Part shown: one piece after another, positions 44,713 to 49,814 of the stretch
Layout of the letters: each line of letters begins with the position of its first letter
Numbering within the stretch: position 1 is the stretch's first letter
Assembly: GCA_963765495.1 (NCBI GenBank)
Contig: CAVXWP010000016.1
Coordinates: forward strand, 192,001 to 256,000
Source of the DNA: Blastocatellia bacterium
GTDB taxonomy: Bacteria > Acidobacteriota > Blastocatellia > UBA7656
Direction: 5' to 3'
DNA: 64,000 nucleotides
The notes under the pieces: model-generated
Told to the model about the DNA's origin: nothing
What the model saw: only the letters and a program-made list of their open reading frames with translations
Databases searched by the model: none
Translations under genes and position numbers: made by a program

Positions 44713-45392
44713 ATGGCGAGGAAACTGGTTCGGCTGCTGCGGCCAGTGCACCCGGACTATTCTTACTTGAAGAAAGTCTTTCAGCACACCCGCGAACTGC
44801 TCCAAGTACGGCCCGGCAAAGTGGAGAAGCGCTTACCGGAGTTGCTGACGGATGAGGAACTATTGGCGTTTTACGAAGCGGTCTGGAACGCTCGCCAGCC
44901 CGTCCATATGGTGATGATCAAGTTGCTGATCTTCACCGGAGTCAGAAACGCCGAACTCGCTAGTGTGCGCCTGAAAGATGTGGACCTCAACAACTGTCAA
45001 CTGCGGATCGAGCAAGGCAAGGGGAAGAAGGATCGTAACGTGCTGTTTCCGAAAAGCTTTCGTGGCGAGTTGGCGCAATATCTGGGCAGCCAGAAAGAGA
45101 AAAGGCGACTCATCTGTTCGAGTCGAATCGCTTCCAGCCGTACTCGACGCGCCGCATTCGGCAGATCGTCAAGCAGTATGCGCTTGAAGCCGGCATTGAG
45201 AAGCGCGTCTATCCACACTTGTTCCGGCACCAAATCATCACCTATCTGAGCAAACGAGGAATCATCAGTCCGAAACTGCAACTGCTAAGTGGGCATGTAG
45301 AAGAAAAAAGTCTGGCGATCTATCGCGATCTAGCCTTGTCAGATGTGGCGGGTGAATATGAAGAGGCGATGCGGACGTTTCCGGTCCGGTAA
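44713..45392 (+). pseudogene. Tyrosine recombinase with frameshift near 45100
   Basis: GVRNAE, GKGKKDR; shifted frame continues YPHLFRH..LSGH..IYRD to TAA 45392. Confidence 0.85.
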
Positions 45393-45576: not shown

Positions 45577-47184
45577 AAGTAGGCCTTTTCAGGCTACTAC
45601 TTACCTGAAAAGCTGTCAAATCGGCTCGATAATTTCGCACTCCAGGCATTCTGCGAAATGATTTCTTTTGGTCTCCTTCCTTTCTCTGATGGTGAGGAAG
45701 CCGCATTCTAATGTCTCAACGGAAGTTTTCGACCAGCATTAGGCTGCCGTTGTGAGATCCCTCCGCTTGGGTAAAGAGGATGGAGCGACGATCGGGCGAA
45801 ACCGCAAAACTGTTAGAGAGGTTTTCTTCCTTCATCCCGGCGATCTTCGTAAGCTTGCTAGTCCGGTGTGTGGCAAAATTGAAGAAGCAAATACCAATGT
45901 CATTCTTCGCCCATGGGCAAAGGAAATAAATACCATCGCTCACTACGGCCCAATAGCGCGACATTCCCAGTGAATTGCAGGACTCACAAACCAGGGTTTC
46001 CTCGCCGCCCTCTATTGGTACACGCCAAAAGCCATTGAAGCGCTCCTTAGTGTAATAGACAAACCTGCCATCAGTTGACTCGAAAGCCGCCAATCCACCG
46101 TGCCTGGTTAGCTGCACGGCCCCGCCTCCCTGGGCTGGCATTTTCCACAGCTGATAATCTCCACTGCGCCTGGAAGCGAAGTAAATCCACTGCCCATCTC
46201 TGGACCAGCTCGGAATATTGTCATCGGCAGCATCGGTAGTGAGGCGGCGCGGTGGGCCACCTTCGGCGCTGGCCACGTAAATGTTCCAGTCACCATTTGC
46301 TTGACAGTCGAAAGCGATCTGCCGTCCATCGGGAGACCAGTGTGGGCTTCCTGCCCACTCGCTCAGGAAGGTGAATTGAGCCGGGTTTGAACCATCGCTA
46401 TTGCATGTCCATATCTCCGAGAACCCGGAGCGATCGCTCGCGAAGGCGACTCTTTGGCCATCAGAAGAGAATTGAGGGTCACGCTCGCCTTCCGTCGATG
46501 AGACGAAACCTACCGGTAGACTAGGCTGGCCTGTTGAAGCTGGTAGCTCAAGGCGGTAGATGCTTAACTTACCACCCCATTGGGTGTAGGCCAGGCGATG
46601 CCCTCTACTAGAAACGGCTACGGAAAACGCTCTGTCTCCGCCCACTGCAAGACGCTCGGGAGTGCCACCGACAATGGGAATTCTCCACAAGGCGCTATGG
46701 GAGATCGGGCTGGCGAGACGACTCGACGAGAAGATGATTTCACGGCCATCCGGAGTCCAGGCCGCTCTATCGATGTGCGCATTATCGAAGGTCAGCCGTT
46801 TGGGCTGGCCGCCCGTTATGGGCACCAGATAGAGATCTCCCAATCCTGTAGTGTCGACAGTTGTGTGGCGCACAAAGGCCAGCGTCTGACTATCTGGAGA
46901 GAAGACTGGAGAGGAATCTCCTGCAGACTGCGCGGGCGGAGATGTCAGAGTGCGCCTTTCTCCCGTCTCCAGCGAAAACAAGAGAATGCCGGCAGGGTCC
47001 TCCTGTGAGACTCGGTGCGAGGACGCGATGAACTTGCCATCAAGAGACCAGTCGAGTGTAGGCCACAAGTGCCAATTAACAGGACCTGCTCTGAAAATAA
47101 AAGGGGTGCTAAATGTTGATAACGAGTAGATGAAGACAAACAACTCCGAGCCTGTGCGATATTACTTCTGCACAGCTTCATCAA

Positions 47185-47329
47185 ACTGGTTGTCGGTAGG
47201 GCATTGGTTAATAAGCATGAGTCTGCTCTACGTGCTCAAAGGCAACAATTCGGGGTACCAGAAATATGCCCAGGTCAAACTGCTATACAGGCTCGAAGCA
47301 CCAAGGACCGTTCGACCTTCATACCGACA
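47185..47329 (-). ncRNA. Bridge RNA 2 (predicted; ends approximate)
   Basis: Scaffold shared with 48676-48820, compensatory stems, right guides complementary to CTGCTAT and CTGCTCT. Confidence 0.75.
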
Positions 47330-47335
47330 TACAAA

Positions 47336-47364
47336 ATTCTATCATGGCTCTCACACATTTTCAT
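47336..47364 (-). promoter_or_regulatory. Sigma70-like promoter for bridge RNA 2
   Basis: ATGAAA-N17-TAGAAT with extended TG; same geometry at 48828-48856. Confidence 0.55.
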
Positions 47365-47424
47365 CATTCGAAGGTGAGCCGCAGGCTCATGATGAACTGC
47401 TATGAAAATAAGAGTAGGTGTTGA

Positions 47425-48663
47425 TCAGGCAGCTTGCTCGACCTCTTCAACAGTTACTCTCAAGCCCGTCCCCTCAAGCTGTCGGATTAATCTTCGCCGC
47501 TGCTTCTCTACATTCCTTTTGTCCAGATAATCTACTCCCAACTCTTTGTAACCGGCTCTCTCTTCTAAGACGTGATATACAATCACAAGTATCGAATGTG
47601 CTATTGCTACCAGCGCCTTCTTCTTCCCCATTCTCTTGACCAGCCTTTTGTACTTCGCTGCAAGGAAACAATCCTTCTGATGCGTTGCTGCCCAGGCTGC
47701 CTGCACAAGGGCTGCTTTTAGATAGCTATTGCCCTTTTGGGTTCTTCCACTCTTTCGTTTTCCTGCCGATTGATTATTACTGGGACAGATCGAAGCCCAA
47801 CTTGAGAGATTCTTGTCTGTTGGGAAGCAGCTCATATCTACTCCAATCTCAGAGACAATGATCTGGGCTAAGGTCTTTGCGACTCCTGGAATAGAATCGA
47901 GAAGCTCAACAGCTTGCTTAACAAAAGGGTCTGGGGAAGTTTCGACCTCCTGGCTGATCTTCTCTTCAACCCTCTTAATAGAGGATTCAACCGAGTCATA
48001 CTGATCGAGGAGTTCTTTAAGAATCCAGCGTTGGGCAGAAGTGAGGCGACCGTGCAAAGCACGCTTCAAGTCAGCCTTCTTACGCTTCATCCTCCGACGA
48101 GCAAGGTCGCTGATCTTGTCAGCATCGGTTTGACCATCAGCCAAAGCTCTCAGCATCAGCCTGCCGCTAACCCCCAAAGCATCACTAGCGACTTGAGCGA
48201 GCTTGATATTGGCGCTTTCAATCAACTTCTGAATGCGATTGGCAAGAGCAGTCTGCTCACGGATAAGGCTCTGGCGGTAGCGAGTCAAATCCCTGAGTTC
48301 ACGGATATGAGGAGGAGGGATAAAGCTGGGACGAAGCAGACCGTGACGAAGCAGGTCAGCAAGCCACTCACAATCCTTAACATCAGTCTTTCTGCCAGGA
48401 ACAGCTTTGACGTGGCGGGCATTAACCAAAATAACCTCCAGGGAGGATTCGAGGATATTGAAAACAGGCTTCCAGTAAACGCCAGTACTTTCAATAGCGA
48501 CGTGAGTGCAGCCTTGAGAAGTGAGCCAGTCGAGCAGGGCAAGCAAATCATCAGTCATGGTTGAGAAAGTGCGAACCTCTTTGTTGCCGTCAGTGATGAG
48601 GCAGGCGACAACGGTGCGAGCGTGAACATCAATACCACAGCAAGAGTTGTAAAGAATCTGCAT
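47425..48663 (-). CDS. IS110-family DEDD transposase/recombinase
   Basis: GIDVH, IESTGVYW, KTDVKD, SIPGV, QSAGK catalytic Ser; AAGGAG precedes ATG 48663. Confidence 0.96.
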   Translation of the reverse strand: MQILYNSCCGIDVHARTVVACLITDGNKEVRTFSTMTDDLLALLDWLTSQGCTHVAIESTGVYWKPVFNILESSLEVILVNARHVKAVPGRKTDVKDCEWLADLLRHGLLRPSFIPPPHIRELRDLTRYRQSLIREQTALANRIQKLIESANIKLAQVASDALGVSGRLMLRALADGQTDADKISDLARRRMKRKKADLKRALHGRLTSAQRWILKELLDQYDSVESSIKRVEEKISQEVETSPDPFVKQAVELLDSIPGVAKTLAQIIVSEIGVDMSCFPTDKNLSSWASICPSNNQSAGKRKSGRTQKGNSYLKAALVQAAWAATHQKDCFLAAKYKRLVKRMGKKKALVAIAHSILVIVYHVLEERAGYKELGVDYLDKRNVEKQRRRLIRQLEGTGLRVTVEEVEQAA

Positions 48664-48675
48664 GATAGAACTCCT

Positions 48676-48820
48676 TTCGGCATTGGCGGGGAGCCTCAAA
48701 ACAAAAGAGACTGCTATGCGTGCTCGAAGCAACAAGTTGTGATGCCTGAAAAGGCTCCCCAAGTCAAACTAACGACCGGGCTAAAGGCACCAAGGCCCGA
48801 CGACCTATCAGCCAATGACC
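48676..48820 (-). ncRNA. Bridge RNA 1 (predicted; ends approximate)
   Basis: GTCGGGCCT-TGG..GGTCGTTAG target loop and ..CATAGCAG donor loop match the element junctions. Confidence 0.8.
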
Positions 48821-48827
48821 AGAAGGA

Positions 48828-48856
48828 AGGATACATAAACTCTCAGACATTTTCAT
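48828..48856 (-). promoter_or_regulatory. Sigma70-like promoter for bridge RNA 1/transposase
   Basis: ATGAAA-N17-TATCCT. Confidence 0.45.
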
Positions 48857-49814
48857 CCGTCGTGAAGAAGCCTTGCTTCATGGATGCCTAACGAGAGTAA
48901 TTTGCGCTCAGTGCCGCCGGTTGCGGGCACGGTGAAGATGGTCCACTCTTTTTCCCAATTGCGCACAAAAGCGATTTGCTGACCATCGGGTGACCAAGTT
49001 GGATATAGGTCTAACCCTGGGAAGGTGGTAAGTCGCAATGCTCTTTCCCCACCGATTGATTTGACGTAGATGTCCCAGTTGTCGTTCTTCTCGCCGAACC
49101 AACGAAAGGCTATCTGGTTACCATCCGGCGAGAAAGCAGCGGCGTCATGGTCACCGATCTCGGTCGTGAAGGGTAGAACCTTCATCGGCGGCAGCGGGGG
49201 GACGAAATTATGCCGGGAAAAGTAGAGCCCTACTATGCTGCTGATGGCTAACAGCAACCCTATAGGCCATATGAAGGTCTTCGCCCGCCACCAAGGACGA
49301 CGGTACGAGGTTGAAGGCGCCTCGTTAGCAACGACTACGGCTTGTGGTGGGATCAATACCGTGTGTGGTAAGACGCCCTCTTCCGTTTCAGCAGTTGTCT
49401 CCTCTTCAATAATGACGCTTGCTCTGGTGAGTCTTTGCAATAACACCTCAGTCACTTCCTCCGTAAGCTCTCTCACGCTAGCCACAAATCGGTAGCCTCG
49501 CTTGGGAACCGTTTCAATGTATTGCGCAGTGTTCTTACTCTCACCCAAAGCCTTCCTCAGCGTCGAGATATTGTTGGCCAGATTGTGCTCTTCGACAAAG
49601 CTATCCGGCCATAGAGTCTTCAGCAGTTCCTCCTTTTCAACCAAGTGGCCGCGGCGCTCGACAAGCACCACGAGGGTTTCAAAGGCCCTCGGAGTCAGCG
49701 CCACAGGCCCGCCATCGCGCAAGAGCAGGTGTTCTGCGACGTCTAAGCGAAAAGGGCCGAATTCATATAAACACTTTGATTGATTTCTCATACCGCCTCT
49801 CCGAAGGTCTGGAG

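Follow-up and report, generated by a model that had tools for sequence, protein, structure and literature searches.

Two bridge RNA sequences on the minus strand of the window (the whole stretch of DNA analysed, 64,000 nucleotides) probably belong to two separate elements that stand head to tail inside a TolB-like gene: an IS110-family insertion sequence, here called IS A, and a 311-bp mini-element that has no transposase gene. An earlier note on this DNA had placed both RNAs inside one element, a reading that did not survive our search of the genome. Each of the two units occurs alone elsewhere, and the second RNA is therefore part of a separate transposase-less element. We consider this explanation, taken as a whole, to be probable, and below we weigh it against three others.

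Layout of the interrupted gene and its insertions

The host gene is split into a 5′ part (48888..49791, minus strand), which encodes an OmpR-type winged-helix domain and PD40/TolB-like repeats (Pfam Trans_reg_C, 2.5e-18; PD40, 2e-15) and terminates in the target half ...CTCTCGTTAG, and a 3′ part (45716..47085, minus strand), which encodes PD40/TolB-like beta-propeller repeats (Pfam PD40, 1.6e-32). Deletion of 48887..47086 in silico fuses ...ERKLLSLG with PVNWHLWP... and restores the host reading frame.

IS A (48887..47397, minus strand; 1,491 bp with the AG core counted once) is an autonomous IS110-family element that consists of a left end with bridge RNA 1, a transposase gene, and the right end ...TTATTTTCATAGCAG. 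The gene (47425..48663, minus strand; 412 amino acids plus stop) matches PF01548 DEDD_Tnp_IS110 (1e-34), PF02371 Transposase_20 (8e-21), and NCBIfam NF033542, “IS110 family RNA-guided transposase” (311 bits, cut-off 140). Bridge RNA 1 (48672..48827, minus strand) lies 9 nt upstream of this DEDD transposase gene, the element context of an IS110-family bridge RNA, and was matched at 141.6 bits (E 1.7e-30) by R1, a covariance model that we built from six relatives. A search of the genome itself recovered five copies of IS A with 99.7 to 100% identity, one of them interrupted; in three places the element is solo.

The mini-element (47396..47086, minus strand) comprises the left end TTCATCATGAGCC..., bridge RNA 2 (47181..47339, minus strand), a conserved hairpin, and the right end ...TTATTTTCAGAGCAG. 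Bridge RNA 2 is a full-length match to R1 (84.5 bits, E 2.4e-17) and is a bridge RNA by its fold and guides, not by its gene context, as the 311-bp element has no recombinase gene. The hairpin (CTGTGC-N12-GCACAG, 47152..47175, minus strand) stands downstream of it; no T-run follows the hairpin, and a terminator scan was empty. An orthologue with 79% identity is present in a genome of another genus (G002), and between the G000 and G002 mini-elements the hairpin stems are identical and the loop differs.

IS A usually targets integron attC sites, at their GTTAG|GC core. Four of its five copies, and one mini-element, sit at ...TCGTTAG|GC in a fixed place and orientation; this sequence is the end of a repeat of ~85 nt that starts with GCCTAAC and recurs in arrays, three of which adjoin integron integrase genes (TIGR02249, 475 to 487 bits, cut-off 265). 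The same arrays also contain two derivatives, of 89 and 87 bp, that consist of element ends only. The site in the TolB-like gene, CTCGTTAG|GTCC, is an attC look-alike. IS A would be an autonomous RNA-guided insertion sequence programmed for the attC core, and for the host genome the elements would be parasites of very large integron cassette arrays that occasionally knock out ordinary genes, as here.

Scaffold and guides of the bridge RNAs

Both RNAs are ~150 nt long, and every motif that the earlier note had named on the minus strand is where it had been placed. The blocks AGGTCG, CTTGGTGC, AGTTTGAC, and TTGTTGC..GAGCACG are common to the two copies, which align pairwise with a mean column identity of 76% over 234 columns. 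CATTGGC/GCCAATG forms the outer stem of copy 1, TGTCGGTA/TACCGACA that of copy 2, and the second arm is GGGGAGCC/GGCTCCCC and GGGCAT/ATGCCC, respectively; single-sequence folds yield these stems in both copies (minimum free energies of −54.4 and −43.1 kcal/mol). When the copies were compared on a model-fitted alignment, 19 of the 31 modelled pairs were identical, 3 had changed on one side, 5 had changed on both sides and still paired, and 4 were unpaired in at least one copy. The observation that the stems differ in sequence yet keep pairing is confirmed.

The earlier note had itself named covariation among homologs as the check. Searching 92 sources with R1 gave 90 matches, 68 of them distinct. 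In the alignment of these 68 sequences, which is fitted to the R1 model itself, 94.5% of the cells are paired (73.1% when shuffled), two-sided changes occur in 26 of the 31 pairs, and the covariation score is 0.552 against 0.154 for shuffled alignments, a value that none of 500 shuffles reached; sliding the partners by 1 to 3 columns as a control gave scores of ≤0.111. Unconstrained single-sequence folds recovered at least 60% of the helix in 50 of the 68 sequences for P1, 51 for P3a, 40 for P2a, 35 for P2b, and only 8 for P3b. These results support, as modelled, a shared scaffold in the form of a three-way junction, with an outer stem and two arms that each contain an internal loop, and so they uphold the junction-type fold with both loops that had been suggested. 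They also support the assignment of the two sequences, from their letters, as probable IS110-family-type bridge RNAs with variable guides between conserved blocks. Rfam contributed no bridge-RNA family for 46500..49500, where the sole match at E ≤1 was a human lncRNA model (22.8 bits, cut-off 40), and no match for the related locus L002.

Three guides can be read in each RNA. Those of bridge RNA 1 are the right target guide TCGGGCCT (48800..48793), the left target guide GTCGTTAG (48776..48769), and the left donor guide CATAGCAG (48718..48711). The left target guide corresponds to the left flank (G/C)TCGTTAG and is identical to the left flank in three of the five IS A copies, the remaining flanks being CTCGTTAG and GTTGTTAG; the left donor guide equals IS A's own right end; and the right target guide predicts AGGCCC, where the flanks have AGGCTC or AGGCCC (G:T wobble). 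Those of bridge RNA 2 are AACGGTCCT (right target, 47312..47304), TATAGCAG (left target, 47287..47280), and TAGAGCAG (left donor, 47230..47223). Its left target guide agrees at 7 of 8 positions with the right end of IS A, CATAGCAG, and its left donor guide, also at 7 of 8, with the mini-element's own right end, CAGAGCAG. The right target guide predicts AG|GACCGT and fits its flanks weakly (GTCCTG, GCTCAT, GCCCTC, CCCGTC, TTCATC, and AGCCCA; at most 3 of 6 positions after the core).

In bridge RNA 1, a 5′ segment of the target arm appears to pair with the top strand on the right side of the AG core and an 8-nt 3′ segment with the bottom strand on its left side, and an 8-nt segment of the donor arm matches the right end of IS A itself. 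Across the family, left target and left donor guides share their last two bases in 66 of the 68 distinct bridge RNAs (AG in 38, AA in 25, AC in 3). For 57 of these RNAs the donor word was located where the right end was expected, one mismatch being allowed, and in 54 of the 57 it is preceded by TTT and begins with C. In many relatives the bases just 5′ of TGGTGC are the reverse complement of the core plus right flank, and a diagonal shows in the pairing matrix; complementarity is clear, for example, in L013 (GUUGCCU with AGGCAAC), L063 (UCAGUCUU with AAGACTGA), L047 (with AACCCT), L041, L065, L074, and L075.

For a right donor guide, we compared the 5′ side of the donor loop with the start of the left end, both visually and in a pairing matrix of 54 RNA/left-end pairs, and found no diagonal and no consistent complementarity or identity. 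A 7-nt identity in IS A, AGGCATC, was considered and rejected; it is not repeated in relatives and seems due to the conserved CAGGCACC block. The suggestion that the pair is a ready-made template for reprogramming thus stands in part, in that the guide positions are readable, and fails for the right donor guide, which was not located. The family-wide alignment does separate scaffold from guide positions for a type of bridge RNA with reversed guide order, AG, AA, or AC cores, and an enclosing stem. Ideal 14-nt targets, made by joining both target guides of each RNA, had no perfect match in the genome and 1, 2, and 1 matches with at most one mismatch, which is about chance, so no hidden preferred site accounts for the mini-element.

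Both RNAs are preceded by ATGAAA-N17-TAnnnT, which the earlier note had read as a promoter. The motif is present at 48856..48851 with TATCCT at 48833..48828 (bridge RNA 1) and at 47364..47359 with TAGAAT at 47341..47336, with TG before the −10 (bridge RNA 2). Its promoter role is another matter, as the ATGAAA box appears to be the left copy of a subterminal inverted repeat found throughout the family. It lies within the left subterminal repeat of IS A, GATGAAAAT (48849..48857, minus strand), and within the same repeat of the mini-element (47365..47357; 47336..47365 with the predicted promoter, minus strand). The repeats of IS A, GATGAAAAT and ATTTTCAT, are 8 to 9 bp long and lie ~30 nt from the left end and across the right-end donor word within the last 13 nt. 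A [GT]GAAA[AG] motif occurs 29 to 37 nt from the left end in 42 of 53 relatives, and the mirror TTTC opens the 8-nt right-end word in 54 of 57; GATGAAAAT mirrors the ATTTTC(AT) of the right end and is kept also in relatives without a bridge RNA at the left end. Conservation of ATGAAA is thus no evidence for a promoter. The box with a 16- to 18-nt spacer and TAnnnT occurs in 18 of the 68 distinct relatives; elsewhere its distance to the RNA differs, and we therefore do not count it as promoter evidence. A promoter consensus scan picked only the mini-element's site (9 of 12 matches, with TG), the IS A site being absent from its list, and across the region it returned 2 sites where 1.6 ± 1.2 were expected, no excess over shuffles. 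The G002 mini-element keeps ATGAAA-17-TATAGT with TGn, though the surrounding left end is just 70% identical. Both RNAs may be expressed, as the earlier note supposed without a need for circularisation.

Copies, probable mobility, and possible origin of the mini-element

The mini-element has six copies in the genome, with 98.8 to 100% identity and in different contexts. Two of them follow IS A and a third follows an 89-bp remnant of it; a fourth stands by itself in an attC site, and the last two form a tandem pair. Five of the six directly follow an IS110-type right end, which is CATAGCAG in three (7 of 8 positions to the guide TATAGCAG) and CAGAGCAG in two (6 of 8); the remaining copy, C2:561274-561584, follows CTCGTTAG (2 of 8), which calls for a further step, for example the loss of IS A by excision. 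The two occurrences of the IS A plus mini-element pair have flanks that differ on both sides. By form, the mini-element would be a MITE-like satellite: it has no transposase gene, has IS A-like ends, is present in several copies, and is found behind its putative helper, alone, and in tandem. Its left end has the CATG-palindrome-GATGAAAAT layout of IS A, and 14 of its last 15 bases are identical to those of IS A. Outside the guide columns its scaffold has 61% identity to IS A and 59% to IS B, a further insertion sequence that is 68% identical to IS A.

No part of the mini-element aligned with the transposases of 80 fetched loci, and the only reading frame after the RNA bears, by eye, no resemblance to a transposase. 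Among the same 80 loci there was no full-length insertion sequence with a similar left end, just matches of 74 to 86% over the conserved RNA blocks, and a search of 150 related genomes for a parent yielded nothing beyond the G002 mini-element, a 3′ fragment of 108 nt in G038, and a match of 41 nt in G026. The donor guide of the G002 copy agrees with that copy's right end at 8 of 8 positions and the right target guide with the right flank at 6 of 8. Neither the IS A protein nor PF01548 found an IS110-type transposase in the G002 assembly, which is 98% complete in 160 contigs and in which repeats may be unassembled.

We propose that the mini-element is non-autonomous, reduced to its two ends, the hairpin, and a complete bridge RNA that carries guides of its own, and that it would have to borrow a transposase from elsewhere. 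IS A or IS B could supply it; use of their transposases by the mini-element is an assumption that we make from sequence. As the mini-element's left target guide fits IS A's right end, the mini-element would insert where that end meets the flank, which would explain the tandem. With right ends that differ at 1 base of 15, IS A and the mini-element may also travel together as a composite. Separate insertions of the two units, or one-sided “half-match” events like those described for other IS110 loci in the accessible part of a preprint (10.64898/2026.08.14.744561), could equally have produced the composite. If the mini-element is truly self-guided with a borrowed enzyme, it would be a natural bridge RNA that acts in trans with a transposase encoded elsewhere, and the helper would tolerate a scaffold just ~60% identical outside the guides, which is relevant to recombinase engineering.

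An unlikely alternative is that a third IS110 element left the 311-bp unit behind as an inert deletion remnant with a dead RNA. Its place behind IS A and its tandem copy would then stem from half-match recombination or local duplication driven by the RNA and enzyme of IS A, and not from guidance by bridge RNA 2. Decayed ends with a bridge RNA are indeed common: 8 of the best 17 model matches in related genomes have no transposase match within the locus (E 1e-5), 7 of these 8 also have no recognisable right end, and some retain just the first codons of the gene. The end-only derivatives of 89 and 87 bp in the same arrays and the poor fit of the mini-element's right target guide to its flanks point the same way, as do the tandem non-coding repeat units beside IS110 transposases that, in the available text of that preprint, keep left-donor matches only (10.64898/2026.08.14.744561). 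Against a remnant, however, stand six nearly identical copies in different contexts, two intact ends, and a full-length model match. Furthermore, between genera the RNA (120/140 identical positions) is better kept than the left end (47/67) or the spacer (62/89), with the changes concentrated in the guides, and it is the mini-element's target guide, not that of IS A, that matches the sequence behind which the mini-element sits. The last 16 bases of the right end are identical in G000 and G002 (16/16), and by eye the RNA differences lie mainly in the guides, in a hairpin loop of the RNA, and on the 3′ side of the donor loop, which is single-stranded.

Of the eight solo bridge RNAs in the relatives, seven proved on inspection to be shortened or decayed insertion sequences and not further mini-elements; a second match in L036 from a first motif search was a false positive, and the second RNAs in L031 and L056, again not mini-elements, proved to be an insertion sequence inserted in another and a second full copy.

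It is more doubtful still that the mini-element's RNA is mainly a regulator of IS A, whether a decoy that soaks up transposase, an antisense RNA, or a competitor, rather than a working guide. Bridge RNA 2 has the same conserved protein-facing blocks as bridge RNA 1, and there is a precedent in Ssr9 of ISPpu9, which, in the accessible portion of its report, is highly complementary to the antisense RNA Asr9, is suggested by the authors to modulate transposase translation, and is dispensable for ISPpu9 transposition (PMC12288879). A decoy, however, needs no guides that fit its own and its neighbor's right ends, and the mini-element has both (7 of 8 each), while the G002 donor guide fits its own right end perfectly. 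Regulator and guide roles can coexist in one RNA.

Finally, a single element with two bridge RNAs flanking its transposase gene is very improbable: the pair is found twice with 100% identity across the joint, and 26 ISfinder IS110/IS1111 entries have long non-coding regions on both sides (PMC11187229, in the part available), but IS A stops exactly at ...CATAGCAG in all three solo copies, and the downstream unit has left and right ends of its own, while four of its copies have no full-length IS A beside them. A mini-element behind an insertion sequence offers a simple explanation for such entries.

There is also a wider reading, which we regard as possible, though the odds are against it: bridge-RNA-only satellites, pared down to a guide RNA between two ends, may be a distinct way of life, with their own programming, a stolen enzyme, homing to the helper's right end, and joint travel, and the composites, in which guide RNAs flank the transposase gene on both sides, may be the missing intermediate in the move of the bridge RNA from left to right, from the IS110 to the IS1111 layout. 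Such a move between element ends was inferred but left unexplained by Durrant et al. (PMC11208160). In the same transposase family, one clade of relatives has its sole bridge RNA downstream, and the composite of IS A and mini-element suggests a testable route for guide RNA relocation between element ends.

Comparison with known systems

The closest known case is ISPpu9 with MITEPpu9/ssr9 of Pseudomonas putida KT2440. As reported in the accessible text of Pares-Guillen et al. 2025 (PMC12288879), ISPpu9 is likewise of the IS110 family and has an AG core dinucleotide, MITEPpu9 likewise occurs solo and in tandem, and minicircles showed both composite and separate mobility. In that text Ssr9 is cast as a regulator or hitch-hiker and is not presented as a bridge RNA that carries guides, whereas the mini-element's RNA is a full model match with readable target and donor guides, the target guide fitting the helper's right end. 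The targets also differ, being REP sequences there and attC sites here, in a comparison made by description and not by sequence. Our literature searches turned up no account of an element that lacks a transposase yet carries a complete bridge RNA with guides of its own; the supplements of PMC11187229 and PMC12288879 may hold cases. The expanded IS110 loci of Hu et al. (2026 preprint, 10.64898/2026.08.14.744561) share repeated insertion into occupied sites, tandem units beside a transposase module, and half-recognition-site boundaries, and in the portion available the units are not described as having bridge RNAs of their own.

Like the bridge RNA of IS621, the RNAs described here have two internal loops, for target and donor, the design there being a left bottom-strand and a right top-strand guide in each loop and the core dinucleotide in all guides, and bridge RNA 1 shares with that RNA a position upstream of a DEDD recombinase gene (Durrant et al. 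2024, PMC11208160; Hiraizumi et al. 2024, PMC11208158). The guide order is reversed: here the right target guide comes first, then a stem loop and the left target guide, whereas in IS621 a stem is followed by the left target guide, a stem loop, and the right target guide, so that our RNAs lack the guide order of the IS621-like, strictly defined IS110 group. AG, AA, or AC takes the place of CT as the core, the outer stem encloses both arms to give a three-way junction, and a right donor guide was not found in the 54-pair matrix.

The IS1111-attC group was reportedly the subject of work by Tetu and Holmes in 2008 and by Post and Hall in 2009. Subterminal inverted repeats are present in that group and, in a shorter form, in IS A. 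In the available part of Siddiquee et al. 2024 (PMC11187229), seekRNA elements of the group (ISKpn4, ISPst6) also insert at one end of the attC sites of integron cassettes, and the order of guides, with the top-strand complement before the bottom-strand match, is the one that we read here. The subterminal repeats of the group measure 7 to 17 bp, and 11 to 13 bp in Siddiquee et al. (PMC11187229); those of IS A, short and very unevenly placed, differ from the 7/3-bp extension geometry of IS1111. IS A also has its RNA upstream of the transposase gene, in contrast to the downstream position in the IS1111-attC group, and the downstream bridge RNA 2 is the other element's. Four relatives (L050, L051, L081, and L086) do have their RNA downstream, as in the IS1111 layout.

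Two units in an interrupted host gene

A minus-strand gene that starts at 49791 and encodes an OmpR-type winged-helix domain with TolB-like PD40 repeats (Pfam) breaks off after ...CTCTCGTTAG at 48888 and restarts at 47085 with GTCCTGTTAAT.... Fusing the halves through one AG gives ...ERKLLSLGPVNWHLWP... with the reading frame kept, and therefore the 1,802 bp between them (48887..47086) are inserted DNA. The single gene of the insert (48663..47425, minus strand) encodes a transposase with matches to DEDD_Tnp_IS110 (1e-34) and Transposase_20 (8e-21), which scores 311 bits (cut-off 140) against NCBIfam NF033542, “IS110 family RNA-guided transposase.” Bridge RNA 1 (48827..48672) lies upstream of this gene and bridge RNA 2 (47339..47181) downstream, both on the minus strand.

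An earlier note had placed both RNAs in one element, a view overturned by the genome's own copies. Searching the genome recovered 48894..47397 as three solo copies (99.9 to 100% identity) and one further copy split by a 1.1-kb insertion, and the stretch from about 47398 to 47086 by itself elsewhere. Read from the junctions, the former is IS A, an IS110-family element of 1,491 bp (48887..47397, minus strand; GCATCCATGAAGC...TTATTTTCATAGCAG), and the latter is a transposase-less unit of 311 bp, here called the mini (47396..47086, minus strand; TTCATCATGAGCC...TTATTTTCAGAGCAG). AG flanks each of them on both sides. TCGTTAG was considered as part of IS A and rejected, as the junctions put it in the target. 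The genome holds six copies of the mini (98.8 to 100% identity) and three of IS B, which is 68% identical to IS A.

Bridge RNA scaffold, guides, and the ATGAAA motif

The blocks that the earlier note described as shared by the two RNAs, and the stems that differ in sequence yet remain complementary, were all found in both copies. We fetched 80 loci encoding transposase relatives (42 to 74% identity, many phyla) and built a covariance model, R1, whose five-helix structure was written from an alignment of six close upstream regions; it comprises an outer stem (P1) and the outer and inner stems of a target arm (P2a, P2b) and a donor arm (P3a, P3b). Searching 92 sources with R1 gave 90 matches, 68 of them distinct. 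The covariation proposed to lie behind the common scaffold was borne out: in the alignment of the 68 sequences, which is fitted to its model and hence biased in favour of the fold, both sides change in 26 of 31 pairs, standard pairs fill 94.5% of cells (73.1% in shuffles), and covariation scores 0.552, a value reached by none of 500 shuffles (0.154 when shuffled). With partners shifted by 1 to 3 columns, the score is at most 0.111. Independently of the model, unconstrained single-sequence folds regained at least 60% of P1 in 50 of 68 sequences, P3a in 51, P2a in 40, P2b in 35, and P3b in 8. P3b (UGUUGC/GCACG) mirrors P2b (UGGUGC/GCCCG) exactly, and in many relatives hairpins that differ in length but have complementary arms are inserted at its tip; the case for P3b as a predicted helix rests mainly on this mirror and these hairpins. 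After bridge RNA 2 stands a further hairpin (CTGTGC-N12-GCACAG; 47152..47175, minus strand), of which the stems are kept and the loop is changed in G002, a related genome with a mini orthologue. Although no T-run comes after it, this hairpin may mark an end or serve in processing.

Two 8-nt words vary freely in the family alignment, one after GCCCG in the target arm and one after GCACG in the donor arm. Their final dinucleotide is common to both in 66 of 68 sequences (AG 38, AA 25, AC 3) and marks a shared core in the sense given for IS621 in the available part of Durrant et al. (PMC11208160). With one mismatch at most, 57 sequences have the donor word where the right end is expected (preceded by TTT and with an initial C in 54), and the target word adjoins the left end, with at most two mismatches, in 53 to 54 of those 57. 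In many relatives (e.g., L013, L041, L047, L063, L065, L074, and L075 among the fetched loci), the segment directly preceding UGGUGC equals the reverse complement of core and right flank together, and a pairing matrix of the two shows a blurred diagonal; no right donor guide was located in the matrix of RNA against left ends. The left target, left donor, and right target guides are GTCGTTAG, CATAGCAG, and UCGGGCCU in IS A; TATAGCAG, TAGAGCAG, and AACGGUCCU in the mini; and AATAGCAG, CATAGTAG, and UACAGCCU in IS B. The donor guides follow the elements' own right ends (IS A CATAGCAG, mini CAGAGCAG, IS B CATAGTAG), an agreement that we regard as a small covariation series. Left ends share a layout of N3-6, CATG, a palindrome, and GATGAAAAT, which may be read by the protein.

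The core of GATGAAAAT is ATGAAA, which the earlier note had taken as part of a promoter, ATGAAA-N17-TAnnnT, before each RNA. The motif is there, but ATGAAA is primarily a subterminal inverted repeat, since it is mirrored at the right end and kept without RNA: in 42 of 53 relatives the distance of GATGAAAAT from the left end is 29 to 37 nt, and the motif mirrors the right-end TTTC(AT), and is retained at other RNA distances in some relatives and in left ends without any RNA. A promoter scan, in which sites were no more numerous than in shuffles, lists the mini's version (TAGAAT, with TG in front). One observation speaks for a genuine promoter in the mini: inside a poorly conserved stretch, its G002 counterpart has retained the spacer of 17 nt together with a TGn-TATAGT −10. 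The accessible portions of two reports describe weak expression of the IS621 bridge RNA from chromosomal copies (PMC13626964) and a strong native promoter in ISPpu9 (PMC12288879).

Integron arrays and the position of the mini

In IS A copies, the left flank ends in a repeat of ~85 nt, GCCTAAC...GTTAG|GC, which recurs a great many times in arrays on contigs C2 (1-55 and 560-605 kb), C3 (317-326 kb), C6 (265-277 kb), C9 (4-48 kb), C12 (211-213 kb), and C17 (0-4 kb). Three arrays adjoin integron integrase genes (C6:263576-264514, C17:4162-5100, and C3:315777-316718; 475 to 487 bits on TIGR02249, cut-off 265). Judging from sequence, these repeats are attC sites. The cassette arrays of this genome are very large and are the main home of its IS110-type elements. 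Within the window, 44773..45326 and 53385..53924 give weak, below-cut-off matches (51 to 59 bits) to the integron integrase model, within its tyrosine-recombinase part; by eye, the former falls in a broken-integrase-like stretch that closely follows the interrupted host gene. Because its flanks are attC repeats, IS A behaves like the attC-targeting IS1111 relatives named in the parts of PMC11187229 and PMC11208160 available. The window site, CTCGTTAG|GTCC, resembles the attC core and agrees with the IS A guides (7/8 on the left; AGGTCC versus AGGCCC on the right) far better than with those of the mini, and so IS A, or a composite of the two, was probably the first to arrive.

Several other units stand on C9. 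The 1.1-kb insertion that splits one IS A copy within its transposase gene (C9:40412-41507) has an A-rich low-complexity end. Two single-copy, end-only derivatives of 89 and 87 bp (C9:30166-30254 and C9:46134-46220) consist of a left end with palindrome and GATGAAAAT, ~30 nt of common spacer, and a right end (CATAGCAG in one, CAGAGCAG in the other), each in an attC site with a mini directly behind. One attC site (C9:30079-32055) holds three stacked units, the 89-bp IS A remnant, a mini, and IS B, with GCTTGCG after the last. A fourth IS110-type left end, also in an attC site (C9:33480-33701), has an intact target arm (guide TGCGTTAG) and a donor arm interrupted by an IS3-like element, at whose start a reading frame resembling IS3-family OrfA was recognised by eye. 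Among the fetched loci, L031:1323-1923, from another genome, holds an IS within an IS: a second IS110-type element, with other guides, interrupts the first one's transposase gene after ~200 nt.

The mini copies lie behind IS A (in the window and at C9:38962-39272), between the 89-bp remnant and IS B, in tandem behind the 87-bp remnant (two copies), and solo within an attC site. The left target guide of the mini agrees with the right end of IS A at 7/8 positions and with that of the mini itself at 6/8, and five of six copies stand directly behind such an IS110-type right-end word. The sixth is preceded by TCGTTAG, a position that would follow from excision of an IS A in front. IS B has a target guide of the same kind, and one of its three copies lies behind a mini. 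The main rival to homing of the mini on IS A is that any IS110 unit adds itself at an occupied site by a one-sided match, as the available parts of preprints by Hu et al. (10.64898/2026.08.14.744561) and Xie et al. describe at other IS110 loci. Plain decay as the source of the mini is countered by the persistence of its lineage, with a 79%-identical copy in G002, from another genus of the same family.

The G002 mini is a full R1 match (80.7 bits), identical to that of the window's genome at 120/140 positions in the RNA, 47/67 in the left end, 62/89 in the spacer, and 16/16 in the right end; on inspection by eye, the changes in the RNA are concentrated in the guides, one hairpin loop, and the unpaired 3' strand of the donor loop. 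Its donor guide fits the right end at 8/8 positions and its right target guide the flank at 6/8. Neither of two queries found an IS110-type transposase in G002; either the mini there is an orphan copy or the assembly has a gap. Across 150 genomes (the window's own and 149 relatives), 17 relatives had one R1 match each, nine adjoining a transposase gene and eight not, and among those eight only G002 retained a right end. Solo bridge RNAs in other genomes thus appear to be mostly wrecks.

RNA relocation and known systems

At four fetched loci (L050, L051, L081, and L086; transposase identity 47 to 50%), the sole bridge RNA is encoded immediately after the gene and ahead of the right end. Fold and guide logic are the same, target and donor guides match flanks and ends, and the left ends keep CATG-palindrome-GATGAAAAT with the RNA absent. 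L050, L051, and L081 group together as a clade with support 99 amid upstream-RNA rows in a FastTree phylogeny of 67 transposases, which is midpoint rooted and omits L086 (split match) and rows with stops or short matches. A composite of the IS A-plus-mini type is, speculatively, a plausible intermediate for relocation of the bridge RNA downstream.

The guide order is the same as in the IS1111-family seekRNAs in the available text of Siddiquee et al. (PMC11187229). The closest known arrangement to IS A with its mini, as far as the sources at hand extend, is ISPpu9 with MITEPpu9/ssr9. What seems to be new, on the sequence evidence, is a satellite RNA readable as a complete bridge RNA, a target guide in the mini directed at the right end of its helper, and a mini lineage retained across genera.
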